Shown here one piece after another: positions 185-58,734 of a DNA stretch of 64,000 nt; within the stretch, counting starts at the first letter, position 1, and each line of letters opens with the position of its first letter. The translations under genes and the position numbers were made by a program. This DNA comes from Planctomycetota bacterium (GTDB taxonomy: Bacteria; Planctomycetota; UBA1135; UBA2386). The stretch is taken from NCBI GenBank assembly GCA_016716265.1, contig JADJWQ010000006.1:2595166-2659165 (forward strand). The letters are read 5' to 3'. A model generated the notes under the pieces. It was given only the letters and a program-made list of their open reading frames with translations. It had not been told where the DNA came from and ran no database searches.

Positions 185-1447
185 ATGAGCCAACTGCCCC
201 GTCTGCTACACCGCCTCGCCCTCCTGACCACCGCCGCCGCCGCGCTCGCCAGCGCCGCCGCCGCCCAGTCCGGCCCGCTGATCGGCTTCGGTGCCGACCC
301 GCTCGGCGCCAACCCCGCGACGCTGCGCCAGGCGCTGTGCAATCCGGCGGCGACCGCGTGCCTCAACACGCTGCCCGCCCCCGCCGAGGCGTGGTCGGGC
401 GGCGCCGCGGTCGACCCGGTGCGCAACTCGCTGTGGCACTCGCAGGGCACCCGCCTGCTCGAGCTCGGCCTCGACACCTGCGCGACCGGCTGCGCGATGC
501 CCGCGGACCTCGTGCTCGGCCCGGTCTCGCGCGTCGGCGGCCTGACCTTCGATGCGACCGCCGGAACGCTGCTGCACGTCGAGTCGGTCCCGGGCATCGC
601 CGCGGTCGTCACCTACGGCTTCACGGCGACCGGCGGTTGCCCGACCCGCATCGGCGTGTGCCGGTTCCCGCTGCCGACCGCCGCGCACCACGCCGGAGCG
701 ATCGCGCTCGACCGCGCCGATGATCTGCTGTTCGTGGCGGCGTCCGACTTCGGCCCGGCCGGCCCGCAGAACCGCATCCTGGTCATCGACCGCAATGGCC
801 CGGGCTGCGATCCGATCTGCTACCTGCCGGCACTCGCGTGCAATCGCGGCACCCTGCAGGCGATCCGCGCGATGGCCTACGACGCCTGCGCGCGCCGCCT
901 CTACGTGTCGGACGGCCGGCAGACCGCCGTATTCGTCGTGCAGATGGGCTCGACGCGCTGCCCGACGCTGATCGCCGAGTCCTGCTGCCCCACCGCGGCG
1001 CCCGGCGGCCAGCTCTGGGCGGGCTTCGACCGCCTGCCGACCGCACCGCGCCAGCTCGGCGGCGGCTGCCTGCCACCGCGCGTCTGCCCGACCTGCCCGA
1101 CGGTGCCGCGCCTGACCGCGACCGGACTGCCGGTGCTCGGCAATGCCGGTTTCGGCTTCCGCATCGAGGATGCGCCGAACACTTCGACCGGCTTCGTGGT
1201 CGTCAACGTCGGTCCCTGCGGCAACGTCCCGTTCGGGTGCGGCACGCTGTTCGCGCAGCCGCCGGTGCTCGCGATCGGCCCGGCACCGATGCTCGGCGCC
1301 GCGTGCGGCGGCAGCGGCGCGTTCCCGCTCGCGCTGCCGGACAACGTCGCGCTCTGCAACCTGCTGCTGTGCGCGCAGGGTCTGGTCGTGTGCCAGGCCG
1401 GCGGGCTCGGCCTGACCAACGGGCTGGTCGTGCCGCTGAGCTACTGA
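185..1447 (+). CDS. secreted Cys-rich hypothetical protein with the shared C-terminal module
   Basis: ORF 56..1447. The internal ATG at 185 precedes a signal-peptide-like stretch MSQLPRLLHRLALLTTAAAALASAAAAQ. Composition is protein-like. The C-terminal 100 aa resemble the tails of other secreted proteins in the window. Confidence 0.55.
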   Translation: MSQLPRLLHRLALLTTAAAALASAAAAQSGPLIGFGADPLGANPATLRQALCNPAATACLNTLPAPAEAWSGGAAVDPVRNSLWHSQGTRLLELGLDTCATGCAMPADLVLGPVSRVGGLTFDATAGTLLHVESVPGIAAVVTYGFTATGGCPTRIGVCRFPLPTAAHHAGAIALDRADDLLFVAASDFGPAGPQNRILVIDRNGPGCDPICYLPALACNRGTLQAIRAMAYDACARRLYVSDGRQTAVFVVQMGSTRCPTLIAESCCPTAAPGGQLWAGFDRLPTAPRQLGGGCLPPRVCPTCPTVPRLTATGLPVLGNAGFGFRIEDAPNTSTGFVVVNVGPCGNVPFGCGTLFAQPPVLAIGPAPMLGAACGGSGAFPLALPDNVALCNLLLCAQGLVVCQAGGLGLTNGLVVPLSY

Positions 1448-1544
1448 CGCTCGACGCTCCCGAATCCGCGCGACGCTGTCCTGGGCGCCGGGCTTCTGCT
1501 TCGATCGGGAGCCGCCCCGGCGTGCACCGCCGCGAGATCCCACG

Positions 1545-2126
1545 ATGACGAAGCTCTGGATCGGCCTGCTGCTGTTCCTCCTGGCGATCGGCTCCTGCCT
1601 CGGCGCGCCGGTGCTCGGCCTGATCGAGAAGGGCCAGGAGGGTGTGCTCGCCGAGCTGGAGAAGGCGCTCCCGACGGTCGTCGCGACCCGGGCCGCCGAC
1701 TCGGCGGAGCCGTTCGAGCTCGGCGAGGCCGACTTCCACGGGGTCGGGATCGTCGCGCGCGATTCCGGCGGCGAGCACCCGACCGAGGGCGTGCCTCGCG
1801 ACGGCTTCGCGTTCGTCAACGACGCGGGCGGCCGGATCGAGGTCGTCGCCAGTGGCGACGGCTCGGCGTCCGGGACCCACGACGGCCTGAGCTACGAGCT
1901 GATCGGCCTCGCGCAGGTGAAGCCCGGCCGCTACCACCTCGACCACCCTGCGCTGCCGGACCAGGTGCAGCTCGTCGTGCTGCGCCTCGACATCCCGTCG
2001 CTGCTCGCGAACAGCATGATCGGCTTCGGCCTGTCGCTGCTGCTCGGGTTCGCCGGCGTGATCCTGGTGATCCTCGGCATCGCCGACGGCCGGCGGCGGC
2101 GGCGCGAGGAGCTCTACGAGGATTGA
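1545..2126 (+). CDS. hypothetical membrane/lipoprotein
   Basis: ORF with an N-terminal hydrophobic signal (MTKLWIGLLLFLLAIGSC) and a C-terminal TM helix. Composition is not Arg-rich. Convergent with the downstream lyase gene. Confidence 0.5.
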   Translation: MTKLWIGLLLFLLAIGSCLGAPVLGLIEKGQEGVLAELEKALPTVVATRAADSAEPFELGEADFHGVGIVARDSGGEHPTEGVPRDGFAFVNDAGGRIEVVASGDGSASGTHDGLSYELIGLAQVKPGRYHLDHPALPDQVQLVVLRLDIPSLLANSMIGFGLSLLLGFAGVILVILGIADGRRRRREELYED

Positions 2127-2127
2127 C

Positions 2128-3383: not shown

Positions 3384-5363
3384 ATGCAACGCTACCTCGT
3401 TCCCGTCGCCGCAGCGCTGACCACGCTCGTGCTGAGTACCGGCGAAGCCCTCGCGCAGAGCCCCGCGACGCCACCGCACGTGTGGGTGTCGTCGAACGTC
3501 GACTCCGGCTACCTGCACAACCTCTCCAACCAGCCCGCGGTCGTGTTCAGCGAGCGCATCCGCTACGACCAGACGACCTGGCTGCAGCTGCAATTCGCGC
3601 CCGACGTCAGCCTGCCGGCCGGCTCGTTCCTGCGCATGACTGCAGCGCAGGACGGCGCGATCCAGCGCCACGACGCCCGTACGCTCATCGACTGGAGTCA
3701 CTACTCCGCCCGCTTCAACGGCAACGAGGTGCTGATCGAGCTCGTCGCCGGCCCGGGCACGCGCGGCAATCGCGTCGCCGTCGACCAGGTGGCGCGCGGT
3801 CTGGTGCTGGTGCCCCCGGAGAGCATCTGCGGCAACATCGACATGCGTGTCGCCAGCAACGATCCGCGTCAGGGTCGGCTGTTCATCGGCTGCACCGGCT
3901 GGATGGCGCACTACGAGATCATGCTGACGGCCGGCCACTGCATGAGCGCCGGCGGGCCGGACTTCATCGAGTTCAACGTGCCGCTGTCGACGTCGACGGG
4001 ACAGCCGGTCGCTTCGCACCCCGACGACCAGTATCCGTTCTCGCGCATCCAGTTCCTCGACGCCGGCATCGGTGCCGACTGGGCGGTGTGCCGCGTGCTG
4101 CCGAACAGCAATCACGGCATGCTCCCGACGGATCGCAACAACTTCCAATGGTACGCGCTCGGCCCGGTCCCCGGTGGCGCCGGCAGCAGCGTCATCCGCA
4201 TCACCGGCTACGGCACGACGACCGCGCCCGCGCCGGCCAACCTGAACCTCGCACAGAAGACCGGCATCGGCCCGCTGTCCGTCGTCGGCGTCGACTCGCT
4301 GTGCTACCAGACCGACTCGACCGGCGGCAATTCGGGCGGTCCGATCATCCTCGAGCAGACCGGTGAGTCGATCGGCATCCACACCCACGGCGGCTGCAAC
4401 ACGATCATCGGTTGCAATAGCGGCACGCGCATCGACCGCTCCGATCTCGCCGGCGTCGTCCGCAGCGTGACCTACCGGGCCGGCGCGTTCCAGACCTTCG
4501 GCCAGGGCTGCCAGGGCTCGGGCGTCTCGTTCAACGTCTGCGCCGGCCTCAACACGACCGGCGGCCCGCTGACGCAGCAGACCTCGCCGAACGAGTACGC
4601 CTACGAGTTCGACGCGACGAGCGCGGTGACGATGCTCGGCTTCCGGATCTACTCGTCGTCGTCGACCGGCCAGACCGAGACGGTCAACGCAGCGATCTAC
4701 GCTGCCGACATCCGCGGCAATCCGGTGACGACGCCGCTCGTCACGACGACGGTCGCCATCGGTGCGTCCGCCGGGTTCTACCAGGCGACGCTCGCGACGC
4801 CGCTCAGCCTCGCCGCCGGTCGCTACTTCCTCGCGATCGACCACACCGCGGGCACGACCTACGTCAGCAACATCACGTCGACGACGTTCGGCCGTGCGTT
4901 CCGCCGCCCGAACGCCTCGACCACCTGGTCGCTGTCGTCGCTCATCACGTCGCCGTCCTTCCAGATCCTCTGCACCGGCGGCACGCAGGGCGTCACGCCC
5001 GCGATCTCGGGCAGCGGCACGCCGGAGCTCGGTCAGACGTTCCGCGTCGTACTGAGCGGCGGCGCGCCGAACACGATCGCGACGAAGTTCACCGGCTTCT
5101 CGAACATGACCTGGGCGGCGGGCTCGCTGCCGTTCAACTTCGGCATCCTCGGCGCGCCGAACTGCAACCTGCTGGTCAGCACCGACGCCTACTTCAGCGT
5201 CGGCACCAATGCCGCCGGCGACGCGTCCGTGCCGTTCCTGGTCCCGAACATCTTCACGCTGGTGGGCCAGAAGCTCTACCACCAGTGGGTGATCGTCGAC
5301 CCGAGCGCGAACAACCTCGGCGCGTCGTTCTCGAACGCGCTCGAGACGACGCTCGGCGGCTGA
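3384..5363 (+). CDS. secreted trypsin-like (S1 family) serine protease with C-terminal extension
   Basis: ATG at 3384 precedes signal peptide MQRYLVPVAAALTTLVLSTGEALAQ. His active-site motif TAGHC and Ser motif GGNSGGPI are present. About 300 aa of C-terminal extension end in the shared secreted-protein tail module. Confidence 0.8.
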   Translation: MQRYLVPVAAALTTLVLSTGEALAQSPATPPHVWVSSNVDSGYLHNLSNQPAVVFSERIRYDQTTWLQLQFAPDVSLPAGSFLRMTAAQDGAIQRHDARTLIDWSHYSARFNGNEVLIELVAGPGTRGNRVAVDQVARGLVLVPPESICGNIDMRVASNDPRQGRLFIGCTGWMAHYEIMLTAGHCMSAGGPDFIEFNVPLSTSTGQPVASHPDDQYPFSRIQFLDAGIGADWAVCRVLPNSNHGMLPTDRNNFQWYALGPVPGGAGSSVIRITGYGTTTAPAPANLNLAQKTGIGPLSVVGVDSLCYQTDSTGGNSGGPIILEQTGESIGIHTHGGCNTIIGCNSGTRIDRSDLAGVVRSVTYRAGAFQTFGQGCQGSGVSFNVCAGLNTTGGPLTQQTSPNEYAYEFDATSAVTMLGFRIYSSSSTGQTETVNAAIYAADIRGNPVTTPLVTTTVAIGASAGFYQATLATPLSLAAGRYFLAIDHTAGTTYVSNITSTTFGRAFRRPNASTTWSLSSLITSPSFQILCTGGTQGVTPAISGSGTPELGQTFRVVLSGGAPNTIATKFTGFSNMTWAAGSLPFNFGILGAPNCNLLVSTDAYFSVGTNAAGDASVPFLVPNIFTLVGQKLYHQWVIVDPSANNLGASFSNALETTLGG

Positions 5364-5379
5364 GTCACCCGGTTCTCGG

Positions 5380-5422: not shown

Positions 5423-8400
5423 TCAGCGCGCGAACGCCGGGGCATTGGGATTGCCGCCCGACTCGAGCCAGGCCAGCAGGTCGAGCAGCGCGTCGAGCGG
5501 CAGCGCCGCGGTCAGTGCGATCGGCATCGGGGAGACCGGCGACGCCTGTCGCGAGACGATGTCGGTCAACGGCACCGTGCGGCGCTCGTCCTGGTAGCTG
5601 CCCTGCGCGATCTCGAGGCGTGACGCGTCCTCGCGCAGCACGCGCCCGACCACCGTGGTGCCGTCGCGCAACGTGAGCGTCGTGTAGCGGTAGACGTCCG
5701 GCACATCGGCCGACGGCTCGAGGATCGCGCGCAGCAGGTCGCCCCGCGCATAGCGGCTGCCGACCGCCGTCAGGTCGGGGCCGAGGTCGCCGCCGGCGCC
5801 GGCGAAGCGGTGGCACGCGACGCAGGCGCAGGTCTCGAACGCGCGCCGTCCCGCGGCGAAGTCACGGCCGCGACCGACCTCGGGCAATGCCGGCAGCAGC
5901 TCCGCCACCGTCCACAGGTGGGTGCCCGCCGCGCGCAGCGCGGTCAGGTCGGGGCGCACCGGCTCCGGTGCAGCGGCGAGCGCCCGCAGCTCGTCGCGGA
6001 GCTCCGCCGGAGCCCGCTCGAGCGCTGCGCTCTCGATCGCGTCGACGTAGCCGCGCAGGCTGAGGCCGCCCTCGAGCGCCTTGGCGCGGCCGAGCAACGC
6101 GAAGTAACGGCGGCGCGCGGGCTCCGACCAGCCGGTCTCGACGAGGCGCAGCGCGTGGGCCGGGTGCAGTGCGGCGGCGAGGTCCGCGGTCTCGGCCACG
6201 GCGAGCGCGCGGTCGACGACGTCCGGGGCGCCCAGCGCGACCAGCAGTTCGAGCAGCGTGCGGTCGGCGACGGCGTCGCCGGCGGGGTAGCGCGGGTCGA
6301 GCAGGTCGAGCAGCCGCGTGCGCAACGTGTCGTCGGGCGGCGCCGCGAGTCGCGCGAGTGCGACGGCCGTGGTGCGCAGCCGGTCGACGCCGAGCGTCCC
6401 GTCGCGCGCAACGAGCGCGCACAGGCGGTCGAGCACCGCGCGGCGGTCGGCGTCGTCGCCGACCCGGGCGAGCGCGAGCAGCGCGTGCGACGCGCGCGGC
6501 TCCGCGGTCTCCCCGAGCGCCCGCGCGCGCCAGACGGCGGGCGCCGCCCGCTCGAGCGCGACGCGCGCCGCGAACCGCACGAAGCGCTCCGGGCGCGCGA
6601 GCTCGCGCCACGCGGAGTCGACGTCGACGTCCGGGCGCTCGAGCGCACGGCGCGCGGCGAGCCCGGGGTCGTTCCACGCGCCGGGCAGGCCCGGCTCGGC
6701 GGCCGCTGTCCTGGTCATCCGGTACAGGCCCGACTGCGTGCCGCGCCCGCCGGTGACGAACCAGAGCGCACGCTCGTCGCCGCGGAACGCGAGGTCGGTC
6801 ACGTTGAGCGGCTTGCCGGTCGCGAGCGGCACGAAGCCGCGATCCGCGAAGCTGCCGCTGCCGTCCGGCACGAGCGGCACCGCCAGGATGCGACCGTACG
6901 CCCAATCCCCGAGCAGCACGGCTCGGCCGGGGAACGGCGCGAACCCGCGGTCGTCGAACAGCACGCCGGTCGGGGACGACAGCCCGACGTCGACGACCGG
7001 CGGCAGCGAGTCGCAATACGCGGTCGGCCATTTCGCCGCGCCGGTCCGCCAGCCGTACTCGCCGCCCGGCACGACGTGCACGACGCGCGTCGGCCGGTAC
7101 CACGGCAGGCCCAGGTCCCACTCCATGTCGGCGTCGAACGTGAACAGCTCGCCGTCCGGCGAGATGCCGACGTCGTACGCATTGCGGAAGCCGGCCGCGA
7201 CGAGCTGCGGTGCATCTGCGCCAGGAACCCAGCGGAGCAGGTGACCGCCCGGCGCGTGCACGCCATTGGCATGGCCTCGCGGGTCCTCGAGCGTCGGCAG
7301 CAGGACGTCCTCGGCGCCGTGGCGGAACGGCGAGTCCGCGGCGAACGTGCGCGGCCGGGCGGACATGTTCCCGTTCATCAGCCACAGCGCGCCGTCGGGG
7401 CCGGGCACGACCGCGTGCGCGCCATGCTCGCCGCCGCTGCCGAGCGCCAGGGCGAGCTCGCAGCGCTCGTAGCGCCCGTCGCCATCGGCGTCGGCGAGCC
7501 GGTACAGCCCGCGCCCATCGTCGCCGACCCCTTGCACCCACAGTGCACCATCCGCGAACGCGAAGCCCTGCGACTCGCGCGGCGTCCCGTCGAGCGGCTC
7601 GTAGCCGACGACGCTCGTCCCGGCGAGCCGCAGCCGCGCGAGCTGGCTGCGCTCGACGGAGACCAGGAGGTCGCCGCTCGGCTCGAAGCCCATCGCGATC
7701 AGGCTGCCCTCGCCCGGCTGCGCCGACCACACGAGCTCGACGGCGTAGCCCGCCGGGATCGTCAGCTGCTCGGCCGGCGTCGCCGTGCGCGGCGCGAGCG
7801 GATCGGGCCACGGCCCCGCCGGCGCCGCCGATGGTCCGAACGAGTGCGCCGGCCCCCACGCCGCCGCGTCGCCGGGCGGCTCGGCGCTCGCCTGCCAGGT
7901 CGAGTCGGTCACGAGCTCCAGCCGCGAGCCGTCGGCGCGCACGAAGCGGAGCCGCGCCAGCAATGCGGCCGGGCCGCCCTCGTTGCGCCCGGCGACGAGC
8001 AGCTGGTGGCGGCCGGGCGCGACCGGACGTCGCACGGTGCGGAGCACCGGCCGCTGCCAATCCTCGCCCCGCGCAAGCTCGTCGCCGTCGAGCGACAGCT
8101 CGAACCGGTTGTCGCAGGTCGCCACGATCTCGATCGCGACCGCGGCCGCCCCGTCGAGCTCGAAGTCCCGGCGCAGCCAGGCGCGCTCGCCATCGCGCGG
8201 CGACGCGTTCGACCAGATCCACTCCGGCGCCCCGCCGGATACGACCGGCGGTGCGGTGAGCGGCCGCACCGGGATCGCGAAGTCCGCCGGCAACGGCCGG
8301 TAGCGCAGGTCGCGATAGCGCACCTCCATCGGCGGCCCCTGGTGGAGCTGCAGCGCGATCGCGCCGCTGCGCAATGCGCCTGGGTGCTCGTCGACGACAT

Positions 8401-8962
8401 CGACGAACGTGTGCCCGTTGATCTCGTGCACGACGCGCGGGCCGACCGCCCACACGACGTAGTCGTTCCAGTCGCCGGGGCGCAGGGTCGCCTGCAGCGC
8501 GTCGGACGACCACCGCGCACCGCGCTCGGTGCGCTGACCGTCCGCCGCGATCGCGATCTGCTGGCCGCGCTGCGCGAGGATGCCGCGACCCTGCTCCTCG
8601 TAGAGGATCCCGGTGTAGCTCGCGCCGGCCTCGAGATCGGCCTGGTAGCCGCGCACGCGGAAGTCGCCGAGATCCGCGCTGCGGTACTGCACGCCCGAGT
8701 TCCCGCCGTCGATGCGGAACGAGAAGCGCAGCTCGAAGTCGGCGATCGTCACCCCGTCGCGCACGAGATAGGTGTTGCGGGTGCACGGCAGCGCGGCGGT
8801 CGAGCGGCCGACGATCGCACCGTCCTCGACCGACCAGTAGCGGGGATCGCCGTGCCAGCCGTCGAGCGAGCGGCCATCGAACAGCGGCACGAAGTCCACG
8901 GCGGGTTGCTGGGCGGGCGCCAGCGTGGCGAGGAACGCGAGGAGGGGCATCGACGCACGCAT
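5423..8962 (-). CDS. large DUF1080 / PVC-type membrane-bound dehydrogenase / HEAT-repeat / cytochrome c domain protein
   Basis: Signal peptide MRASMPLLAFLATLAPAQQ. N-terminal DUF1080-like region (LFDGRSLDGWHG...GNSGVQYRS). Central beta-propeller-like dehydrogenase region. C-terminal CxxCH (CVACHRFAGAGGDLGPDLTAVGSRY), typical of planctomycete giant dehydrogenase-cytochrome proteins. Confidence 0.85.
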   Translation of the reverse strand: MRASMPLLAFLATLAPAQQPAVDFVPLFDGRSLDGWHGDPRYWSVEDGAIVGRSTAALPCTRNTYLVRDGVTIADFELRFSFRIDGGNSGVQYRSADLGDFRVRGYQADLEAGASYTGILYEEQGRGILAQRGQQIAIAADGQRTERGARWSSDALQATLRPGDWNDYVVWAVGPRVVHEINGHTFVDVVDEHPGALRSGAIALQLHQGPPMEVRYRDLRYRPLPADFAIPVRPLTAPPVVSGGAPEWIWSNASPRDGERAWLRRDFELDGAAAVAIEIVATCDNRFELSLDGDELARGEDWQRPVLRTVRRPVAPGRHQLLVAGRNEGGPAALLARLRFVRADGSRLELVTDSTWQASAEPPGDAAAWGPAHSFGPSAAPAGPWPDPLAPRTATPAEQLTIPAGYAVELVWSAQPGEGSLIAMGFEPSGDLLVSVERSQLARLRLAGTSVVGYEPLDGTPRESQGFAFADGALWVQGVGDDGRGLYRLADADGDGRYERCELALALGSGGEHGAHAVVPGPDGALWLMNGNMSARPRTFAADSPFRHGAEDVLLPTLEDPRGHANGVHAPGGHLLRWVPGADAPQLVAAGFRNAYDVGISPDGELFTFDADMEWDLGLPWYRPTRVVHVVPGGEYGWRTGAAKWPTAYCDSLPPVVDVGLSSPTGVLFDDRGFAPFPGRAVLLGDWAYGRILAVPLVPDGSGSFADRGFVPLATGKPLNVTDLAFRGDERALWFVTGGRGTQSGLYRMTRTAAAEPGLPGAWNDPGLAARRALERPDVDVDSAWRELARPERFVRFAARVALERAAPAVWRARALGETAEPRASHALLALARVGDDADRRAVLDRLCALVARDGTLGVDRLRTTAVALARLAAPPDDTLRTRLLDLLDPRYPAGDAVADRTLLELLVALGAPDVVDRALAVAETADLAAALHPAHALRLVETGWSEPARRRYFALLGRAKALEGGLSLRGYVDAIESAALERAPAELRDELRALAAAPEPVRPDLTALRAAGTHLWTVAELLPALPEVGRGRDFAAGRRAFETCACVACHRFAGAGGDLGPDLTAVGSRYARGDLLRAILEPSADVPDVYRYTTLTLRDGTTVVGRVLREDASRLEIAQGSYQDERRTVPLTDIVSRQASPVSPMPIALTAALPLDALLDLLAWLESGGNPNAPAFAR

Positions 8963-9035
8963 GGCCGCGCACTCTACTGGCCCGGACCCGCGGAGCGCTG
9001 CGGCCCTCGGCCTCCGCAACGGAAGAAGAGGTCCG

Positions 9036-13029: not shown

Positions 13030-14070
13030 ATGAGACCACTGATCCGCCCGACGACCGCCCTGCTGCTCGCGACCGGAACCTGCCTCGCCCAGACCGTCTC
13101 GCCCGCCCTGTTCCGCCTCGCGCCGGCGAACTCCTCGGACAGCCGCCCGTTCGCGGCGGCCGGCTCCCGCTGGCTGCAGGTGCACGACGACCTGCGCGGC
13201 CAGCCGATGACCGTGCGCAGCCTGTCGTTCCGACTCGAGGAGGCGCTGAGCGGTTCGCCGATCCCGGCGTTCCAGCTCAACGCGGACCTGTGGATGTCGA
13301 CGGCGGTGACGACCGCGACCGCGCCGAGCAGCACGTTCGCGCTGAACCACGGTGCCGACCGCACGCAGGTGCTCGCCCGCACGCAGATCGTGCAGTTTCC
13401 GGCGATGACCGTGTCGACGCCGCTGCCGGGATTCGAGTACCGCATTCCGCTCGCCACGCCGTTCGTGTTCGGCGGTCAGGGTCCGCTCGCGTGGGAGGCC
13501 CAGGTGCAGAGCACGACGAGCTTCGTGTCGTTCGACGCGGTGCTCGGCTCCCAGACCAATCCGCGACCTTTCGAGCGCGAGCTCGGGGACGGCTGCGTGC
13601 GCAGCGGCGGCGCTCTCGGAATGTCGCTGTTCGGCTACAGCACGGTGTCGTGGTCGTCCGGCGCGATGACGAACAACTACAGCGTGAGCCTCGCGCCGAC
13701 CGGAGCAACGCCCGTCCTGATGATCGGCCTCGGGTACGCACCCATCGTGCTGCCGGGAACGGCCAGCGGCGCGTCCGGGCCGTGTACGCTCGCGACGGTG
13801 CCGGTGAACGTCCTGCCGATGGCCAATCCTACGCGCTATGCGTTACCTCTCGCGCTGTCGCCGGCGTTCCACGGTGCGATCTTGACGAGCCAGGCCTTCG
13901 CGCTCGATCCCGGTGCCAACGCGCTCGGCGTCGTCTCCAGCAACGCATTCACGCAGGTCTTCGCGGCCCCCTACGGTCCGGCGCCGGTCGGCCGCGTGTC
14001 GAGCAGCAGCGCGTCGAGCGCGACCGGTCTCGCATTCGCCAACACCGGCCTCGTCATCGGCGTGCGCTGA
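13030..14070 (+). CDS. secreted hypothetical protein with the shared C-terminal module
   Basis: Signal peptide MRPLIRPTTALLLATGTCLAQ. Protein-like composition. Its last 130 nt are duplicated at 21620..21752. Confidence 0.6.
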   Translation: MRPLIRPTTALLLATGTCLAQTVSPALFRLAPANSSDSRPFAAAGSRWLQVHDDLRGQPMTVRSLSFRLEEALSGSPIPAFQLNADLWMSTAVTTATAPSSTFALNHGADRTQVLARTQIVQFPAMTVSTPLPGFEYRIPLATPFVFGGQGPLAWEAQVQSTTSFVSFDAVLGSQTNPRPFERELGDGCVRSGGALGMSLFGYSTVSWSSGAMTNNYSVSLAPTGATPVLMIGLGYAPIVLPGTASGASGPCTLATVPVNVLPMANPTRYALPLALSPAFHGAILTSQAFALDPGANALGVVSSNAFTQVFAAPYGPAPVGRVSSSSASSATGLAFANTGLVIGVR

Positions 14071-19541: not shown

Positions 19542-21161
19542 GTGCGATGGTGGACGTGCCTACTGGTAGCCGTCCTGGCCCTCGCGTCTCCCGTGGCCGC
19601 GCAGAGCGCGTCGCTGACGACCACCTATCGATATGACGGCTTGGGCTACGGCGGCAACGGCGTCTTCTTCGATCTTCAGGTCCACGTGCCGGTCACGATA
19701 GACCGACTCGAGGCGAGCATAACGAATCGTCACCGGGTCGGCACCATCGAGCTGTGGTCGATCCCCGGCGGGCACTCCCTCGCCAACATCACGTCGACGA
19801 ACGGCTGGACCATGCAGGGATCGGCGACGGTGGTTTCCGAAGGCATCGGCGCGCCCTCCAGCGTCGTGTTCACCGACGGATCCGGAAATCCGGCGCCATT
19901 CACGCTGATGCCTGGACTGTACGGAATCGCCCTCTGCTACCAGAATCACGCCCCGGCCTACTCGACCTCCCCCCCGAACAATCGGGTCTACTCCAACAGC
20001 GACATGACCCTGACCGCAGGCTCGATACAGAGTGCCTACTTCGTCACCCCTAGGGCCGGTGCGGCCATATGGAACGGCACGATCTACTACACCGTCTCCC
20101 CGGCCTGGGCAACGTGGCAGTCGTACGGCACAGGCTGTCCGAGCACCTGGGCCGCGTTCTACGAGGGCTTCGGGGGTGCGGTCGATCTGGCCGGTGCGCC
20201 CGGCTCGGAGGGTGTCGTCCGGCTGGATCCGGTCGGGTCCGGATACCTCGTGACGATCGACAGTCCGGCGTGGCACACGCCGACGAGTGCTCCGCTATCT
20301 TTGGGAGACGACACGAACAGCGCACCCCAGTTGCTCCCGTTCACTCTGTCCTATCCGGGTGGGTCGACCAATCGCGTCATCGTCGGGTCCAATGGATATG
20401 TCTACCTCGGTTCAGGTGTGAGCGCACAGGCGTACTATGGGCGAAGGTCCCTGTTCCTCACCGATGGTCCCCGACTCGCAGCCTTCTGGGGCGATCTGAA
20501 TCCCGCCGCAGGTGGCTCGGTGCACTTCGACGTGGACCCGTCTGGCAATGCGGCGTACGTCACCTGGTTGGCGGTACCCGAATACGCGGTGCCGAACGCC
20601 GTGAGCACGTTCCAGATATGTATCCGGTCGAGTGGCATCATCGACTATCGGTACCGGTCCTGCGTGGTCGGTTTCGCCCAGGCGATCGCCGGCTGGAGTC
20701 CCGGCCGTGGCGTCCCCGAGCCCGAGCCGATCGACATCTCCGCAGCCGCCGCGGCGGGATTCGTCACCGGCCCGGATGCGAGGCCCATCACGCTGGGATG
20801 CACCGGCCGCCCGGTCCTCGGTCAGGGCATCAGCCTGGACGTCGCAGGCATACCCACCAACACCGCGCTCGCGGCCGTGTTGATGGGCTTCGGACGGACC
20901 CCGGCACCGGGTCTCTCGCTCGACAACCTGTTCGGCGGCACGGAGGGCTGCTTCCAGCACGTGACGGCCCCTCTGCTGACGGCCGGAGCGCTGGTCGGGC
21001 CCATGTCGACCGGCAGCATCGCGCTGACCGTCCCACTGGATCCGAGCTTCGCGGGCGGCCTGCTGTTCAACCAGGCCGTCGCAGCCATCAGTCCGCCGGC
21101 GTACACGACGAGCGGCCTGATCACCAGCAATGGTGTATGGCTCCTCCTCCAGGGTCTGTGA
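19542..21161 (+). CDS. secreted hypothetical protein with the shared C-terminal module
   Basis: In-frame GTG at 19542 gives signal peptide (V)RWWTCLLVAVLALASPVAAQ. The upstream ATG at 19401 would add a 47-aa Arg-rich leader. Protein-like composition over 540 aa. Confidence 0.6.
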   Translation: MRWWTCLLVAVLALASPVAAQSASLTTTYRYDGLGYGGNGVFFDLQVHVPVTIDRLEASITNRHRVGTIELWSIPGGHSLANITSTNGWTMQGSATVVSEGIGAPSSVVFTDGSGNPAPFTLMPGLYGIALCYQNHAPAYSTSPPNNRVYSNSDMTLTAGSIQSAYFVTPRAGAAIWNGTIYYTVSPAWATWQSYGTGCPSTWAAFYEGFGGAVDLAGAPGSEGVVRLDPVGSGYLVTIDSPAWHTPTSAPLSLGDDTNSAPQLLPFTLSYPGGSTNRVIVGSNGYVYLGSGVSAQAYYGRRSLFLTDGPRLAAFWGDLNPAAGGSVHFDVDPSGNAAYVTWLAVPEYAVPNAVSTFQICIRSSGIIDYRYRSCVVGFAQAIAGWSPGRGVPEPEPIDISAAAAAGFVTGPDARPITLGCTGRPVLGQGISLDVAGIPTNTALAAVLMGFGRTPAPGLSLDNLFGGTEGCFQHVTAPLLTAGALVGPMSTGSIALTVPLDPSFAGGLLFNQAVAAISPPAYTTSGLITSNGVWLLLQGL

Positions 21162-24010: not shown

Positions 24011-24012
24011 CG

Positions 24013-45683: not shown

Positions 45684-46256
45684 ATGCACACCGTACTCCT
45701 GCCCCGCGTCCTGACGCTCCTGACCCTCGCGACACTCGGCGCCCTCGCCGGCTGCTCGAGGGACGGAGCGGCGAGCACCCAGAAGTCCGACCTCCTGGCC
45801 CGCGGCCGCTACCTCGTGCAGACGATGGGCTGCGCCGACTGCCACTCACCGCACGGGCCGGACGGCGCCGTGCTGCCCGGCCGGGAGCTCTCCGGCCACC
45901 CCGAGTCGGCCCCGCTGCCGCACTGGACCCCGGACATGCTCGAGCAGCACACGCTGGCGACGACCGCCCCGACCGGCACCGCCTTCGCCGGCCCGTTCGG
46001 TCTCAGCGTCGCGTGCAACCTGACGCCGGACCCCGAGACCGGCATCGGCGCGATGACCGCCGACCAGCTCGTCGCGAGCTGGCGCAGCGGCCGCCACTGG
46101 AAGGAGGACCGCAACGTGCTGCCGCCGATGCCGATCCCGGCACTCGCGCACTGCGAGGAGAGCGACATCCGCGCGATTCACGCCTATCTGCACTCGCTGC
46201 CGCCGGTCCGCAACATGTGCCCGCCATCGCGGGTTGCGGGTGCGACCTCGGACTGA
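45684..46256 (+). CDS. c-type cytochrome lipoprotein (single CxxCH)
   Basis: Lipoprotein signal MHTVLLPRVLTLLTLATLGALAGC. Heme-binding CADCH. About 190 aa. Confidence 0.7.
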   Translation: MHTVLLPRVLTLLTLATLGALAGCSRDGAASTQKSDLLARGRYLVQTMGCADCHSPHGPDGAVLPGRELSGHPESAPLPHWTPDMLEQHTLATTAPTGTAFAGPFGLSVACNLTPDPETGIGAMTADQLVASWRSGRHWKEDRNVLPPMPIPALAHCEESDIRAIHAYLHSLPPVRNMCPPSRVAGATSD

Positions 46257-46278
46257 CGGCGAGGCGTCCGAGCCACGC

Positions 46279-50371: not shown

Positions 50372-52600
50372 TCAGTAGTCGAGCCGCGCGTGCAGCTGCG
50401 GCGTGGCTCCCCAGCCCGCGATGCAGCTCGCGGTCAGCGACGGCTCGTTGACCAGCCACTGGAACGTCACGCGCGCGCCGATCATCGTCAGCAGGCACGG
50501 CACCTCGAACACGTACGAGGCGGAGCCGAGCACGATCGGGCTGCCGCTGATCAACACCGGTTGCGTGATGACGCAGGCGCCGCACGGGATGTCGAGCCCC
50601 GGCACACCGACCAGGGCGAGCGCGATGTTGCCGGTCGAACCGCTCAGCGTGACGCGGAAGTCCCGGTTGCCGATCGCGAACGGGCCGTCCGTCCCGATCG
50701 TCCCCACCGTCCGAGCCGAGCCGCACTGACCACCGGCGGTCACGATCGAACCACCCGCGCCGAACGCCGAGAAGCGCGTTGCCAGGATCCCCTGGTCTTG
50801 CCCGACAAGTCCGGTTTGGGTGAACAGCAGCAGCGCATCGTTCGAGCTCGCTCCGGATGACCGCTGCGACGCGATGCATGCTCCGCTCACGGCGATTCCA
50901 AACGGACCGACGGGCGTGATCGTGATCGGGAGACCACACGGCATGCAGCGCGGATCGAGCTCCCGCCCCTCGATGCGCGCGGTGCTCGAGGTGGCGACCA
51001 AGAAGAATACGCCATACTTCGAGCCGAGCCATCCGACCGAAGGATAACGCTCCGAGTAGGTCGGATCGGTAGCGATCGCGAGAACGGGGCTCGCGGTCAC
51101 CGGTGGGCGACCAGGGTCCGCGAAGACCAGCCGTCCGTACAGATTATAGTCGCCGGTGCCGTCATCGCGCTTCGCCCACAGGACGAGGCCGCCACTGGTG
51201 GAGGATTCCACCGAGACCTCGTAGAAGATGCGATTGACGCTCGTGAACGAATCGAGGTAGAGCGGGTTGGAGACAGGAGCGCCCCGTGCGTCCACCTCGA
51301 TGACGACTACGGCCGACTGCAGGAAGTTGAACTGACTCCAGGCGATCAGCGCCCGATCACGGTCGTATCCCACATCGACGTCCAGATAATCGAGAGCTCC
51401 GCTCGCGAGGATGCTGGTCTGCCAAGGAACCGGCGCGGACAGACCGACCGTGACCGCGGTGCTGTAGACTCCCATCGCCTGGCCCGTGGTGGGATTCTTG
51501 GGGATCCACGCAACGCGGGCCCGATCGGATTGCGGGTCGCCACCCGCAGCCAGCTGGAGGATCGGCGAGAGCGACAGCGTCACCTGACCCGAACGCAAAG
51601 GTGATCTGGGATCGACGGACTGGCAGTACAGCCCGGTGTCGCCGCCGTACACGACCAGGAATCTGCTGTATGCGGCGACGTACACCACCTGCACGACGGG
51701 GGAAGCGTTCGGTCCGAACTGGGCAAGCCGGATCGGTGACCCTGCCGACTGGCCGGTCCAGTCCAGCTTCATGATCCAGACCTCCGGGTTCTGGCCAAGG
51801 AACGGATTCCCCGAACGCGTCCACCCAACGAGGTAGTTGTTTCCCGACGGCGCGTAGGCGCAGTCGATTTCCGCGGGCGCGTAGCCGGGGTTGATCGACG
51901 TCACGATCGAGCCGACCAGCGGATCGAGCGTCAGGGGGTAGCTCGCCGCGTCGACGAAGCTCCCTGGCAGCTCGAGCCGCAGCGTCCGACCGTCGAGCCG
52001 CAGGAGGCCCGCGACCGACGCGCCCTGGGCGTCGACCCCGGTGACCGCGCCGATCGACACACCGCCACCGTCCTCACCGCGGAGCTGCAGCGTCCCGTCC
52101 GTGGCGAGCTCGGTCTGGAGCTCGGTGTGCAGCGACGCCTCGACGATCAGGTCGCCGGAGCCCGCGGGCCGTTGCTCGAACACCAGCGTCCACTCGAGCC
52201 CGTCCGGCCGCACTTCGAAGCACTCGCGCACGCCTTCCGTGCGCTCGAACACCGCGCACGCACCGTCCTCGGCCGGCTCGACGCCGGCCGGCACCCCGGC
52301 GACCCGCGTGCCGTCCGCTCGCCGGATCTCACCCAGCTCGATGTCGAGCGCCGCGCTGCGGCCGCCATCGACGCCGGCCGACGCAAACGCCACGACGCCC
52401 GCGCCGAACCTGGCGGCGTAGTCCTGGCCGCGGGCAGTCAGCGCGCCGGCCGGATTCCGCTCGAGCGTCACCGGCGGCACCCAGGATCCGTTGATCCGGA
52501 CCGGGTCGAGCGCACGCTGCGCGAGCGCGGGGCAGGTCAGCAGAAGGATCGTCAACGCGATGGCATCGCGCTGAACCGTGCGATGGGGAGATCTGGCCAT
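50372..52600 (-). CDS. secreted hypothetical beta-rich protein with the shared C-terminal module
   Basis: Signal MARSPHRTVQRDAIALTILLLTCPALAQ at the internal ATG 52600. Protein-like composition over 740 aa. Confidence 0.6.
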   Translation of the reverse strand: MARSPHRTVQRDAIALTILLLTCPALAQRALDPVRINGSWVPPVTLERNPAGALTARGQDYAARFGAGVVAFASAGVDGGRSAALDIELGEIRRADGTRVAGVPAGVEPAEDGACAVFERTEGVRECFEVRPDGLEWTLVFEQRPAGSGDLIVEASLHTELQTELATDGTLQLRGEDGGGVSIGAVTGVDAQGASVAGLLRLDGRTLRLELPGSFVDAASYPLTLDPLVGSIVTSINPGYAPAEIDCAYAPSGNNYLVGWTRSGNPFLGQNPEVWIMKLDWTGQSAGSPIRLAQFGPNASPVVQVVYVAAYSRFLVVYGGDTGLYCQSVDPRSPLRSGQVTLSLSPILQLAAGGDPQSDRARVAWIPKNPTTGQAMGVYSTAVTVGLSAPVPWQTSILASGALDYLDVDVGYDRDRALIAWSQFNFLQSAVVVIEVDARGAPVSNPLYLDSFTSVNRIFYEVSVESSTSGGLVLWAKRDDGTGDYNLYGRLVFADPGRPPVTASPVLAIATDPTYSERYPSVGWLGSKYGVFFLVATSSTARIEGRELDPRCMPCGLPITITPVGPFGIAVSGACIASQRSSGASSNDALLLFTQTGLVGQDQGILATRFSAFGAGGSIVTAGGQCGSARTVGTIGTDGPFAIGNRDFRVTLSGSTGNIALALVGVPGLDIPCGACVITQPVLISGSPIVLGSASYVFEVPCLLTMIGARVTFQWLVNEPSLTASCIAGWGATPQLHARLDY

Positions 52601-52864: not shown

Positions 52865-55800
52865 ATGACCATCACCCCGCCCCCACCGCAGAGCCGCTGG
52901 CTAACCGCCGCCCTCGCAGCGAGCTGTGTCGCGCTCGCCCCCGCCCAGTCGATCGTCCGCGACATCCGCACCACGCCGGGCCCGCTCGTTCCGCAAAGCA
53001 ACCCGGGCGAGTTCGTCGCGCTCGGGTCCATCGCGGTGTTCGTCGCGACCAGCGAGTACGGCACCGAGCTGTGGCGGACCGACGGCACCGATGCCGGCAC
53101 CTACGTGCTGCGCGACATCGAGCCGGGTCCTGGCTCGTCGAACCCGCGCGACCTCCGCCGCGTCGGGAATCGCGTGTTCTTCAGCGCCGAGGTCCAGGGC
53201 CTCGGCCGCGAGCCATGGAGCACCGACGGCACGCCGGCGGGCACCGTGCTGCTCGGCGACCTGCAGCCTGGCGCGGGAACCTCGCAGCCGACCCCGGCAA
53301 TCGAGTTCCGCGGTCGCGCGGTGTTCGCCGCCCTCGACGGCGTGCACGGCTTCGAGTACCGGATCAGCGACGGCACGCCCGCCGGGACCTCGCTGATGTT
53401 CGACCTCGTGCCCGGCAACGGCAGCGGCGCATCGGCCTCGTTCTGCGCACTCGGCGACCGCCTGATCCTCAGCGCGGGGCTGCCGGGCGTCGGCCAGGAG
53501 CTGCTCAGCTCCGACGGCACGCTCGCCGGCACGTCCGTGCTGTTCGACATCCAGCCCGGCCCGAGCGCGAGTCGGCCGGCGGCATTGACCGTCGCCGGCG
53601 ATCGCGTGTTCTTCGTGGCCACGACGCCCGACGCGCTCGGCGTCGAGCTCTACGTGACCGACGGCACGCCTGCTGGCTCCCGCTTCATCGCCGACGTGCG
53701 TCCGGGCGGAGCGAGCCCGGGCATCACCGCGATGACAGCACTCGGCCGCGGCGTCGTGTTCGCGGCCGACGACGGCACCCACGGCGTCGAGCCCTGGTTC
53801 TCCGACGGCACTGCCGCGGGCAGCTTGCTGCTGGCCGACCTCGAGCCCGGCAGCGGCAGCAGCAACCCGGAGCAGCTCGTGGCGATCGCGGCCGGCCGCG
53901 CGGTGTTCCGCGCGACGACGACCGCCACCGGCGGCGAGCTGTTCGCGACCGACGGCACGCCGCAGGGCACCGCTCTCGTCGCCGACCTCCTGGCCGGCCG
54001 CGGTGGCTCGAGTCCCTCCGCGCTGGTCCCCGCGCTGGGCGGCGCCGTGTTCGCCGCCGCGGACACCGCGGCCGGCATCGAGCCATGGTTCACCGACGGC
54101 ACCGCTGCGGGAACGCGCCGGATCGTCGACCTGCGGCCGGGGACGTCCGGCAGCGCACCGACCGCGTTCGCCCCGGCACTCGGCGGCGTCGTGTTCCGGG
54201 CGGTCGCGCCGGACGGCGGCACCGAGCCGTTCTTCACCGACGGCACCACCGCCGGCACGCGGATGATCGCCGACGCCTACGCGCGCGTCGGCAATGGCGA
54301 CCCGGTGCTGCTCGGCGCGGCCGCCGGCGACCGCCTGCTGTTCGAGGTCGTCGACGAGACCGGCAGCCGCCAGGTGTGGAGCACCGACGGCACCGGTCCC
54401 GGCACGTTCGCCATCTCGATGCCGCCCGGCAGTCCGCAGGTCGCCAGCTCCAAGCCAGTGACGTTCCGCAACGAGCTGTGGATGGGCTGGACCAGCAACC
54501 AGGGCGGCCGCGAGCTGTGGGCGAGCGACGGCACCGTGGCCGGGACGCGGCGCATGGTCGACGTCTGGGTCGGGCCGAGCTCGTCGGAGGTGTCGGCGCT
54601 GCGCACGGCGGGCGACCGCTTGTGGTTCCAGGCGCGCGACGGCCTGCTGCCGGGCTACGGACCGTTCGTGTCCGACGGCACGCAGGCCGGCACGACGCGC
54701 ATCGGTCCGCTGTCCGGCCCGGAGGTGCTGACCGCGGCCGAGGAGTTCACCGCCTTCGCCGGTCGCGTCGTGTTCCGCGGCACCGACAATGCAATGGGCC
54801 CCGAGCTGTGGCAGAGCGACGGCACGCAGGCCGGAACGGTGCGCTGCTTCGACCTGGTGCCCGGCTACTTCGGCTCGAGCCCGGGCTCGTTCGCGGTGCT
54901 CGGCGGGCAGCTCCTGTTCGCCGCGCGCGACAACAGCGTGTCGACCGAGCTGTTCGCCTGGGACGGCGTCGCGAGCCTGCCGACGCTGGTCCGCGACATC
55001 TTGCCGGGCAGCGGCAGCTCCGAGCTCGCCGAGCTGACACCGGTGCTCGACCGCGTCGTGTTCCGCGCGCGCACGCTCACGGACGGCGAAGAGCTGTGGG
55101 TGACCGATGGAACGACCGCCGGCACGGTCCTGATCGCGGATCTCGCGCCGGGCAGCGCGAGCTCTCGTCCGCGCGAGCTGACGCGCTCGGGAGCACGCGT
55201 GTTCTTCTTCGCGGACGACGGCCGGAGCGGCGTCGAGCTGTTCGTGACCGACGGCACGCCGCAGGGCACGTCGCAAGTCGTCGATCTGTGGCCCGGCCTC
55301 GCGTCGGGCGTGCGCACCGGCTCGCTGACGCCGGTCGGCGACACCGGGCTGGTCGCGTTCGCCGGCACCGACGGCGTGAGCGGGTTGCAGGTGTGGCTGT
55401 CCGACGGCACCGCCGCCGGCACGCGCGCGGTCGGCCCGGTGCGCCCGCGGCCCGGTGCCGGCTTCGCGTGGATCGGTCAGCTGCGCGCGGTCGGCGCGTG
55501 GCTCCTGTTCACCGCCGACGACGGCATCCACGGCCGCGAGCTGTGGCGCATGTCGTTGACCGGCCAATCGGTCGCCGCCGCACGCAACTTCGGCGTCGGC
55601 TGCGTCGGCTCGACCGGCACCGACCCGCGGATCGGAGCGGTCGCGACGCCGACGGTCGGCGAGGCCGGCTTCGGCGTCACGCTCGACCGCGCGCTGCCGA
55701 ATGCACCCGCCGTCCTGAACGGCGCCGTCGCCGCCGGCGCGCTGCCGATCGGCACATGCACGCTGCTGGTCGCGCCGCCGGTCCTGCCGCTCGCGACGGT

Positions 55801-55966
55801 CGCGACCGACGGCTCCGGCCGCGCGCTGTTCGCATTGCCGATCCCGAACGACCCCGCACTGCTCGGCGGGACGTTCCACGCGCAGTGGATCGTCGCCGAT
55901 CCGGGTGGCCCGCTGTTCGGCGTCGCGACATTGAGCGACGGACTGCAGGTGCTGATCGGGCGCTGA
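52865..55966 (+). CDS. secreted ELWxxDGT-repeat protein with the shared C-terminal module
   Basis: Signal MTITPPPPQSRWLTAALAASCVALAPAQS. About 17 tandem units of the (E/Q)LW(R/S/T)(T/S)DGT(A/P)AGT type. Confidence 0.75.
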   Translation: MTITPPPPQSRWLTAALAASCVALAPAQSIVRDIRTTPGPLVPQSNPGEFVALGSIAVFVATSEYGTELWRTDGTDAGTYVLRDIEPGPGSSNPRDLRRVGNRVFFSAEVQGLGREPWSTDGTPAGTVLLGDLQPGAGTSQPTPAIEFRGRAVFAALDGVHGFEYRISDGTPAGTSLMFDLVPGNGSGASASFCALGDRLILSAGLPGVGQELLSSDGTLAGTSVLFDIQPGPSASRPAALTVAGDRVFFVATTPDALGVELYVTDGTPAGSRFIADVRPGGASPGITAMTALGRGVVFAADDGTHGVEPWFSDGTAAGSLLLADLEPGSGSSNPEQLVAIAAGRAVFRATTTATGGELFATDGTPQGTALVADLLAGRGGSSPSALVPALGGAVFAAADTAAGIEPWFTDGTAAGTRRIVDLRPGTSGSAPTAFAPALGGVVFRAVAPDGGTEPFFTDGTTAGTRMIADAYARVGNGDPVLLGAAAGDRLLFEVVDETGSRQVWSTDGTGPGTFAISMPPGSPQVASSKPVTFRNELWMGWTSNQGGRELWASDGTVAGTRRMVDVWVGPSSSEVSALRTAGDRLWFQARDGLLPGYGPFVSDGTQAGTTRIGPLSGPEVLTAAEEFTAFAGRVVFRGTDNAMGPELWQSDGTQAGTVRCFDLVPGYFGSSPGSFAVLGGQLLFAARDNSVSTELFAWDGVASLPTLVRDILPGSGSSELAELTPVLDRVVFRARTLTDGEELWVTDGTTAGTVLIADLAPGSASSRPRELTRSGARVFFFADDGRSGVELFVTDGTPQGTSQVVDLWPGLASGVRTGSLTPVGDTGLVAFAGTDGVSGLQVWLSDGTAAGTRAVGPVRPRPGAGFAWIGQLRAVGAWLLFTADDGIHGRELWRMSLTGQSVAAARNFGVGCVGSTGTDPRIGAVATPTVGEAGFGVTLDRALPNAPAVLNGAVAAGALPIGTCTLLVAPPVLPLATVATDGSGRALFALPIPNDPALLGGTFHAQWIVADPGGPLFGVATLSDGLQVLIGR

Positions 55967-57713: not shown

Positions 57714-57777
57714 CGACAGACGGAGCGCTCGAGGATCGACTGCGTGACGCCGGATCGACAGGCCGCGGGACGGCCGA

Positions 57778-58734
57778 TCAATCGCCGATCACCGCGACGC
57801 CGTAGTCGCTGGCGATCAGGCCGAGCGGGTTGGTTCCCGGCGAGAGCTGGAACCACTGCGCGAAGACCGGATTGCCGACGATCGCGGGGATCGCCGGAAC
57901 CGGCAGCGAGAACGACGCATTGCCGCTGCCGTTGGTCATCGCGGTGCCGCTCGCCTGGACGTCGATGAACAGCGAGCAGCTCGTCGCGCCGATCGGCGTC
58001 AGGTCGATCGGCAGCGGGACGCCACCGGAGGTCACGGTGTCGCTGAAGCCGATCGCGAGAACGGCAGTCGTGTTCGCCTCACCGCGCGTCAGCGTGAGAT
58101 CCAATGAGCCGCCGATCGTGGCGATGCAGCCGGCGATCCGCGGATTCAGCGTGCGGCTGCCGAGCGGGCAGTACGAGCCCAGCGTGATGAACGAGCCGGG
58201 GAACTTCGGCCCGCAGTAGAGTCGGAACTTGTGGTCGTAGCGCACGAATGGACCGTTCCAGCTCTGGCCGCCGTCGAAGCTGCCGCGATACTGCTGCGTC
58301 GACGCGGTGTTGACCCGTTCGATCGGCGACTGCGCGCCATTGGGAGGCCCGAACACGATCCAGAAGTCCGTGTTCGGCGCGAGCAACACCGGTGACGGCA
58401 GCAGGGCACCCTGCCAGCAATCGAGCTGCGTCATCTGCCAGGTGCCGGTGCCGAGGTCCTGCTGCGGGCGGTTGTTGACCGCATCGTGGGACCAGATGCC
58501 GAGCGACGCGGTGGCGACGCGTTCGCCGGAGAACACCTCGGCGGCGAACACGGCGAGACCAGCGCCGCTGTTGAACTTCACCGCGTAGAGCAGGTTCGGT
58601 CCGCCCATCGAGATGTTGTCGTCGAACACGTTGTTCGGCGACGTGTCGAAGCAGGGCACGGACTGGGCCGGCAAGGCAGCTGCGGCGGCCAGAGCGAGGG
58701 AGACGACGAACGGAATGGAGCGCATGGAGTGCAC
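57778..58734 (-). CDS. secreted hypothetical protein with the shared C-terminal module
   Basis: Signal MHSMRSIPFVVSLALAAAAALPAQS. The tail ...GSGNASFSLPVPAIPAIVGNPVFAQWFQLSPGTNPLGLIASDYGVAVIGD* matches the tail pattern of the other secreted proteins. Confidence 0.6.
   Translation of the reverse strand: MHSMRSIPFVVSLALAAAAALPAQSVPCFDTSPNNVFDDNISMGGPNLLYAVKFNSGAGLAVFAAEVFSGERVATASLGIWSHDAVNNRPQQDLGTGTWQMTQLDCWQGALLPSPVLLAPNTDFWIVFGPPNGAQSPIERVNTASTQQYRGSFDGGQSWNGPFVRYDHKFRLYCGPKFPGSFITLGSYCPLGSRTLNPRIAGCIATIGGSLDLTLTRGEANTTAVLAIGFSDTVTSGGVPLPIDLTPIGATSCSLFIDVQASGTAMTNGSGNASFSLPVPAIPAIVGNPVFAQWFQLSPGTNPLGLIASDYGVAVIGD

Follow-up and report, generated by a model that had tools for sequence, protein, structure and literature searches.

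Seven secreted proteins with a common C-terminal domain

The DNA analysed here (the window) is a stretch of 64,000 nucleotides from a Planctomycetota bacterium (assembly GCA_016716265.1, contig JADJWQ010000006.1, positions 2,595,166 to 2,659,165 of the forward strand). Seven of its genes encode secreted proteins that end in a similar C-terminal domain, referred to below as the tail, and the nature of this domain is the subject of the present work. The part of each protein that precedes the tail is called its passenger. All seven coding sequences (CDSs) have a stop-free translation and start with a hydrophobic N-terminal signal peptide ending in A-x-A|Q (A-x-A|Q[ST/R]). Four of the seven proteins are present verbatim at NCBI, where they are entered as 'hypothetical protein' of a 'Planctomycetes bacterium' metagenome-assembled genome (MAG) under locus tags IPM29_27435 to IPM29_27620. 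The G+C content is 69–74% across the window.

The genes and their tails are listed below. Bit scores refer to the independent profile and E-values to the leave-one-out hidden Markov models (HMMs), both of which are described in the next section; the ELW tail is that of CDS 6. For the tails of CDSs 1–5 and 7, the coordinates were verified by translation.

185..1447 (+): CDS 1, 420 aa; signal peptide, unannotated Cys-rich passenger, divergent tail; MBK8979649.1; no Pfam or NCBIfam match
1043..1444 (+): tail of CDS 1; Cys-rich, second conserved Cys replaced; 24.8 bits; BLASTP 1e-8 to the ELW tail
3384..5363 (+): CDS 2, 659 aa; signal peptide, trypsin-like S1 protease (Pfam Trypsin, 2.6e-8), DUF4082-like module (3.4e-4), tail
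4950..5360 (+): tail of CDS 2; top-scoring copy, 161 bits; leave-one-out E 4.5e-13
13030..14070 (+): CDS 3, 346 aa; signal peptide, unannotated passenger, tail, 37-aa extension; MBK8979656.1
13570..13956 (+): tail of CDS 3; 29.5 bits; leave-one-out E 4e-5
13957..14067 (+): C-terminal extension of CDS 3, VFAAPYGPAPVGRVSSSSASSATGLAFANTGLVIGVR; member of a conserved 'extended' subfamily
19542..21161 (+): CDS 4, 539 aa; signal peptide, unannotated passenger, tail
20748..21158 (+): tail of CDS 4; 48.5 bits
50372..52600 (-): CDS 5, 742 aa; signal peptide, unannotated passenger, divergent tail; MBK8979683.1
50375..50779 (-): tail of CDS 5; 26.1 bits; leave-one-out E 4.6e-6
52865..55966 (+): CDS 6, 1033 aa; signal peptide, 17 ELWxxDGT repeats, tail
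55577..55963 (+): tail of CDS 6; 98.9 bits; copy chosen for the three-dimensional model
57778..58734 (-): CDS 7, 318 aa; signal peptide, lectin/carbohydrate-binding-module (CBM)-like beta-sandwich passenger, tail; MBK8979686.1
57781..58194 (-): tail of CDS 7; 126.5 bits; leave-one-out E 2.3e-14

Two of the gene starts differ from those deposited. The NCBI model of the 19542 protein (P0007, 522 aa, first residues MAAQSAS) places the start within the signal peptide, and the upstream GTG at 19542 restores the signal peptide in full. For 57778-58734, the deposited start is an ATG three codons downstream of the GTG chosen in the initial annotation of the window. That annotation also gave the tail a length of 90–110 aa; the shared domain is there, but it is longer, at about 125–135 aa, and starts at the FGxGC strand. 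Three copies are divergent, namely those of 185-1447 (Cys-rich and without the second Cys), 50372-52600 (in sequence) and 13030-14070 (with its 37-aa extension).

An HMM search of the six-frame segments found no further tail copy inside the window. An eighth, divergent copy lies just upstream of it, in a DUF5060/Collagen_bind_2 (glycosidase-like) protein at 7519-9813 (-) of L044, a Logan contig that overlaps the start of the window. Sequencing run SRR11674018 contains part of the contig to which the window belongs.

Homology of the tails

The last 129–166 residues of the seven proteins are mutually alignable, with 26–37% identity to the ELW copy. When leave-one-out HMMs were built from six tails each, five of the seven left-out tails were recovered, at E-values from 4e-5 to 1e-14, and there were no false matches among 607 six-frame segments. 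The tail of 185-1447 was tied to the ELW tail by BLASTP (1e-8), while that of 19542-21161 was the weakest inside the window.

A profile independent of the window was then made from 144 database members, none of which reached 50% identity to a window tail. The seven tails scored 161, 126, 99, 48.5, 29.5, 26.1 and 24.8 bits against it, and the best of 1,400 shuffled tails scored 10.0. Because even the lowest real score lies well above what any shuffle reached, the similarity is one of homology and not of composition. Purely compositional similarity had been named in the initial annotation as the outcome that would undo its proposal, and the comparison with the shuffles disposes of it. The recurrent C-terminal module that it had proposed for the seven secreted proteins therefore stands, with open CDSs, signal peptides and homologous tails.

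Predicted structure of the tail

The ELW tail was modelled with AlphaFold2 from a 51-sequence alignment, giving a mean pLDDT of 96 and a pTM of 0.88. The model has ten beta-strands in a two-sheet Greek-key sandwich that can be superposed on immunoglobulin (Ig), FN3 or macroglobulin domains, which places it in the Ig-like fold class. A Foldseek search of the PDB with this model gave no match at E < 1e-3, with TM-scores of at most 0.47; its structural neighbours were adhesin, invasin, macroglobulin and FN3 domains. A full-length model has two domains, with a dip in confidence where they join.

Two Cys residues, in the motifs FGxGC and GAPGC, are conserved. Both were present in 129 of 157 aligned tails and both were lost together in two, and this joint retention or loss fits a disulfide. 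On the model, the tail is an autonomous Ig-like beta-sandwich of about 130 residues, probably stapled by that disulfide. The tail ends in a beta-strand, ...[IVL]G[RGDN], without a transmembrane (TM) helix or a basic cluster.

The initial annotation had allowed that the tails might turn out to be an already well-characterised Ig-like domain. The predicted fold is indeed Ig-like, but no characterised Ig family or domain model covers the tails.

Size and distribution of the family

When 1.84 billion cluster representatives were scanned with HMMER, the seven-tail profile matched 12,486 of them at E ≤ 1e-3, and 3,325 still matched at E ≤ 1e-10. The domain ended 0–3 residues from the C-terminus in 146 of the 150 best representatives, and no protein had more than one significant copy. 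A hydrophobic N-terminus was seen in 77 of 109 representatives that looked full-length. Wherever a member carried a source name, it read 'hypothetical protein [Planctomycetota bacterium]'; for the members looked up, no UniRef source was listed.

Loci in genomes were collected with a sequence pattern from 10 close family members, using one genome per GTDB species. Of the 43 loci obtained, 41 were labelled Planctomycetota or planctomycete sub-taxa and two 'bacterium' (unclassified MAGs); the G+C content of related loci ranged from 54 to 74%.

Neither Pfam-A nor NCBIfam gave a tail match for the seven window proteins or, at E ≤ 1, for 51 family tails. A profile search of all PDB sequences found nothing below E = 0.6, and the domain is not described in the literature searched (on ELWxxDGT repeats, choice-of-anchor domains, Planctomycetota secretion and C-terminal domains, and secretomes). 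The tail is thus a very large domain family without a model in Pfam-A or NCBIfam and, as sampled, is found in uncultured Planctomycetota alone.

Passengers

Of the seven passengers in the window, one is an S1 protease with a DUF4082-like module, one consists of 17 ELWxxDGT repeats, one is a lectin-like sandwich, and the other four are unannotated. They had been described as unrelated to each other, which is borne out for the protease (Trypsin) and the ELWxxDGT protein (17 repeats); two of the proteins (3384 and 57778), however, have a weak DUF4082-like module in common. The architecture of CDS 7, with a length of about 310 aa, is common among the top-scoring representatives, and a homologue search with its lectin-like passenger found only 5 close relatives.

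Beyond the window, most passengers of 102 full-length representatives had no Pfam match. Those that did contained FG-GAP (7), DUF4082 (5), trypsin-like (4–5), subtilase (3), Kelch (3), beta-lactamase (2) or reprolysin (2) domains, with single cases of CHRD, CARDB, LamG, cytochrome c7 and PPC. Calx-beta and DUF5060 were recorded as further passenger domains.

The ELWxxDGT passenger of CDS 6 matched NCBIfam TIGR04534 at 640.9 bits (cut-off 65) over 17 stretches, and its homologues occur in many phyla. Among the 120 best of these, counting domains by their presence in the protein and not by their position, 13 had the C-terminal domain (CTD) PF18962 of the T9SS (type IX secretion system), others had RTX (PF00353) or SLH (PF00395) domains, and about 9 had the present tail. 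Since the homologues in other phyla bear PF18962, PF00353 and PF00395, the tail appears as an alternative to the sorting or anchoring modules used there, and by analogy this exchange of domains looks like a 'choice of anchor' position.

Comparison with known C-terminal modules

The initial annotation likened the tail to the T9SS CTD. The likeness holds for its C-terminal position on signal-peptide cargo with diverse passengers, and does not extend to homology. No match to PF18962 or TIGR04183 was found in 58 tails at E ≤ 1, and hhalign gave a probability of 0.1% against a profile of 12 PF18962-annotated CTDs. What the two have in common is an Ig-like sandwich at the extreme C-terminus, on unrelated Sec-exported cargo, in one copy per protein and with dozens of cargo proteins per genome. 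The T9SS CTD is a folded Ig-like sandwich (PMC4804311) of seven strands in a 3+4 arrangement (PMC11285876), whereas the tail has ten predicted strands, about 130 aa and a conserved Cys pair, and its model does not show the seven-stranded 3+4 sandwich. The T9SS has been described as limited to Bacteroidetes (PMC11611037, PMC5445135), whereas the hosts of the tail were Planctomycetota or unclassified MAGs at all 43 loci. A search that covered the window only found none of PorK/L/M/N, Sov/SprA, PorV or PorU in it.

The PPC domain (PF04151) resembles the tail as a C-terminal all-beta domain on secreted proteases, and tail passengers are often trypsin-like, subtilase or reprolysin proteins. However, no tail matched PF04151, and the passengers of the tail extend far beyond proteases. 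One representative bears a PPC domain besides its tail.

Tripartite sorting tags are short, at about 25–40 aa; in them, a signature motif is followed by a TM helix and then a basic cluster. PEP-CTERM/exosortase, MYXO-CTERM/myxosortase, GlyGly-CTERM/rhombosortase and LPXTG/sortase systems each place a lineage-specific C-terminal element on dozens of unrelated secreted proteins (PMC11980579, PMC3237569). The tail follows the same many-to-one logic, but it is predicted to be a soluble folded domain without a hydrophobic helix, and it has no NCBIfam match. The parallel with PEP-CTERM drawn in the initial annotation must therefore be abandoned, since the tail is modelled as a folded beta-sandwich and matches no NCBIfam sorting signal; a tag of the PEP-CTERM type is excluded because both the TM helix and the basic cluster are missing.

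Dockerins are single, mostly C-terminal modules on heterogeneous secreted enzymes and set the location of those enzymes. They are small calcium-binding helical modules with a duplicated loop-helix motif, and they have cohesin partners. The tail differs in that its model is all-beta, that it has no dockerin match in Pfam, and that neither the window nor 91 related loci showed a cohesin-like scaffold. The Pfam results and the fold exclude PPC and dockerin alike as identities of the tail.

Possible function of the tail

We propose that the tail is a shared C-terminal localisation module acting in surface targeting, in retention at the surface, or in both, and we put the probability of this at about 0.5. 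Judged from their signal peptides only, the proteins would cross the inner membrane by the Sec route. The tail would then fold and become oxidised in the periplasm, and the folded tail would send its unrelated passengers (proteases, beta-propeller or repeat adhesins, lectin-like proteins) to the cell surface or keep them there. By analogy, its position and logic would be those of the T9SS CTD, arrived at without homology. As to the C-terminal sorting or secretion tag suggested in the initial annotation, the element is real, recurrent and terminal, it has heterogeneous passengers and it belongs to no characterised model, while the sorting role is one that we infer. A more specific version is that the tail serves as the export or attachment signal of an undescribed outer-membrane secretion or surface-anchoring pathway in a clade of uncultured Planctomycetota, an independent counterpart of the T9SS; this we think unlikely.

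A number of observations weigh against a localisation module. The copies in this one genome are only 26–37% identical to the ELW copy, and the tail is larger (about 130 aa, ten strands) than the T9SS CTD (seven strands; PMC11285876). Stand-alone genes encode a signal peptide and the domain only: P0049 (161 aa, L045 10001-10486) and P0129 (160 aa, L047 10001-10483). Both are complete: their contigs are 46 kb and 23 kb long, respectively, and each gene is flanked by intergenic gaps. Very small CTD-containing proteins are, however, known from the T9SS (PorA, 246 aa, and Fjoh_0547, 112 aa; PMC7712824), so that these genes weaken the idea of a tag without refuting it. In P0041 (761 aa) the domain comes straight after the signal peptide and is followed by about 600 residues. 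Members of an extended subfamily, which includes CDS 13030-14070, carry a conserved 35–45 aa beyond the domain, so a free C-terminus directly after the domain is not required. Alignment of 11 extended tails (loci L012, L014, L017, L028, L032, L036, L037, L039 and L041-L043) gave the pattern P..R[IV][YF]..s..ATTG......G[LI]VT[RL].., with a frequent aromatic or basic end residue, and the extension may form two further strands or act as another signal.

The first motif of the domain can also be displaced. In 24 of 98 representatives, FGxGCxG stands 145–210 aa upstream of the remaining tail, separated from it by a DUF4082-like module of about 150 aa. In the window this is seen at residue 372 of the 3384-5363 protein and at residue 195 of the 19542-21161 protein (YGTGCPS, about 200 aa upstream of the tail). 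Several members with a displaced motif lack the first Cys at the tail itself. The arrangement suggests a domain inserted in the first loop of the tail (a nested insertion), a shared strand, or a disulfide stapling two domains, and as such it seems a poor fit to a simple tag.

Also to be set against a localisation module is the outcome of the search for machinery. The window holds no sortase-, secretin-, T9SS-, translocon- or peptidase-like candidate. Synteny was examined within ±3 kb of the 43 genome loci and ±10 kb of 44 metagenome loci, plus extra loci, and the non-cargo open reading frames (ORFs) were clustered over 91 loci (602 kb, 128 tail ORFs). No exporter- or sortase-like neighbour recurred in these 91 loci, and the dedicated partner gene envisaged in the initial annotation was found neither there nor in the window. 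The cargo genes of T9SS or exosortase systems usually do not lie beside their machinery, so this negative carries limited weight. The neighbours that did recur were Ser/Thr kinases (6 loci, the only type in more than three) and, in 3 loci each, extracytoplasmic function (ECF) sigma factors and some ORF families without annotation; we take Ser/Thr kinases and ECF sigma factors to be generally abundant in planctomycetes.

Some arrangements around individual tail genes were recorded as well. The next gene after P0129 encodes an ECF sigma factor, and the one after P0049 a Ser/Thr kinase-FGE-sulfatase fusion; downstream of CDS 13030-14070 in the window come an ECF sigma factor (14152-14889) and then a kinase (14944-18129). 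The order of tail gene and then ECF sigma factor, seen in the window and in L047, did not recur in other loci and was dropped as a candidate association. With the copy just upstream of the window, eight tail proteins occur among about 40–45 neighbouring genes, a local concentration of putative cargo genes, and tandem tail genes are also present in L001-L003, L014, L017, L023, L026, L031 and L036.

Some of what weighs against a localisation module would equally well suit a ligand- or substrate-binding module, similar to a CBM, a lectin or an adhesin Ig-like domain, that tethers proteins to a polymer or particle and has no part in sorting or export. We regard this as a serious alternative, though a less probable one. 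The Ig-like sandwich, with adhesin, invasin, macroglobulin and FN3 domains as its neighbours, is consistent with it, and a binding site might be made up of the polar and aromatic positions that are conserved in the tail (N, D, Q-W, S-N-G). The stand-alone genes and the one N-terminal case imply a domain able to work alone, the extended subfamily shows that its C-terminus need not be free, and no machinery was found in the window or the 91 loci. CBMs and adhesin Ig domains, however, occur at either end of proteins, internally and in tandem, unlike the tail with its terminal position in 146 of 150 representatives and its single significant copy. Moreover, the passengers are mostly not carbohydrate-active enzymes, several of them are themselves lectin/CBM-like or adhesin-like, and where ELWxxDGT homologues in other phyla bear extra domains, these are modules for sorting or anchoring. 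That the tail serves in protein-protein docking or self-association, assembling passengers on a scaffold or surface lattice by analogy with dockerin and cohesin, seems improbable to us. Like a dockerin, the tail is present once and terminally on a mixture of enzymes and adhesins, the paralogues are clustered, and stand-alone copies could act as caps or competitors; but neither the window nor the related loci showed a scaffold-like protein in which partner domains are repeated, and the all-beta fold is unlike the helical, calcium-binding dockerin.

It is very improbable that the tails belong to a system already described, either as true T9SS CTDs that have diverged too far to be recognised or as another tag such as PEP-CTERM. 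They have the position and logic of T9SS CTDs and the same Ig-like fold class (PMC4804311), but the 58 tails matched no Pfam or NCBIfam model at E ≤ 1 and the hhalign probability was 0.1%. Ten strands over about 130 aa stand against seven (PMC11285876), a TM helix and a basic tail are both lacking, and all hosts are Planctomycetota or unclassified MAGs. Chance or compositional resemblance between Ala/Gly/Pro-rich proteins of a 72% G+C genome, to which the 69–74% G+C of the window and the identities of only 26–37% to the ELW copy might have pointed, is already refuted by scores of 24.8–161 bits against at most 10.0 for 1,400 shuffles, by the 0 of 607 false matches, by the 3,325 representatives at E ≤ 1e-10 and by the confident fold prediction.

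Other features of the window

The remainder of the window has ordinary chromosome content, including a DHDPS-family enzyme, a 3-keto-disaccharide-hydrolase/cytochrome c protein, two Ser/Thr kinases and an ECF sigma factor. Further genes encode a fucosidase, methylmalonyl-CoA mutase, a class I fumarase, a pyridoxal phosphate (PLP) decarboxylase, a GH123 protein, a GDSL lipase and a radical SAM/SPASM enzyme. Three long Arg/Ala/Pro-rich ORFs without family matches, at 23485-25056 (+), 30388-31224 (+) and 46184-47689 (-), resemble the shadow ORFs of a high-G+C genome more than they do genes.

Two groups of genes adjoin tail genes. The ORF at 48617-50320 (-) encodes a 567-aa protein with a signal peptide, a hydrophobic, TM-like stretch in the middle and nine tandem CHSA repeats at the C-terminus; in the DNA the repeat lies at 48635-48737, with a 12-nt period and 8.6 copies. 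It is directly upstream, on the same strand, of the radical SAM/SPASM ORF 47259-48959 (-), which has no specific NCBIfam equivalog match. Together the two look like a pair of Cys-rich substrate and maturase, which adjoins the tail protein 50372-52600. Directly downstream of the tail gene 57778-58734 is a run of unannotated envelope-type genes at 58908-63740 (-), encoding a 557-aa signal-peptide protein, a 488-aa lipoprotein-like protein (…SAGCAA) and a lipoprotein of about 200 aa (…FAACAG), with no Pfam or NCBIfam match where tested.

Implications

To our knowledge, how planctomycetes move large folded proteins through their outer membrane, or keep them on it, is poorly understood, and the literature searched gave nothing on this. 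The tail family offers a concrete handle on such export or retention: an HMM recognises it easily, it numbers over 3,000 clusters at E ≤ 1e-10, it was seen in one phylum only, and its members nearly always carry the domain at their very end. The proteases, repeat adhesins and lectin-like proteins that bear it, sampled from many different metagenome-derived genomes, form a putative set of cargo. If the tail is only a binding module, it would still be a major unannotated domain, and a model of it would annotate thousands of 'hypothetical proteins' and be worth a Pfam or NCBIfam entry. If it is a sorting domain, phylogenetic profiling should expose the machinery; and if that machinery is an undescribed pathway, the family would be its cargo set, amounting to thousands of proteases, adhesins and lectin-like proteins.

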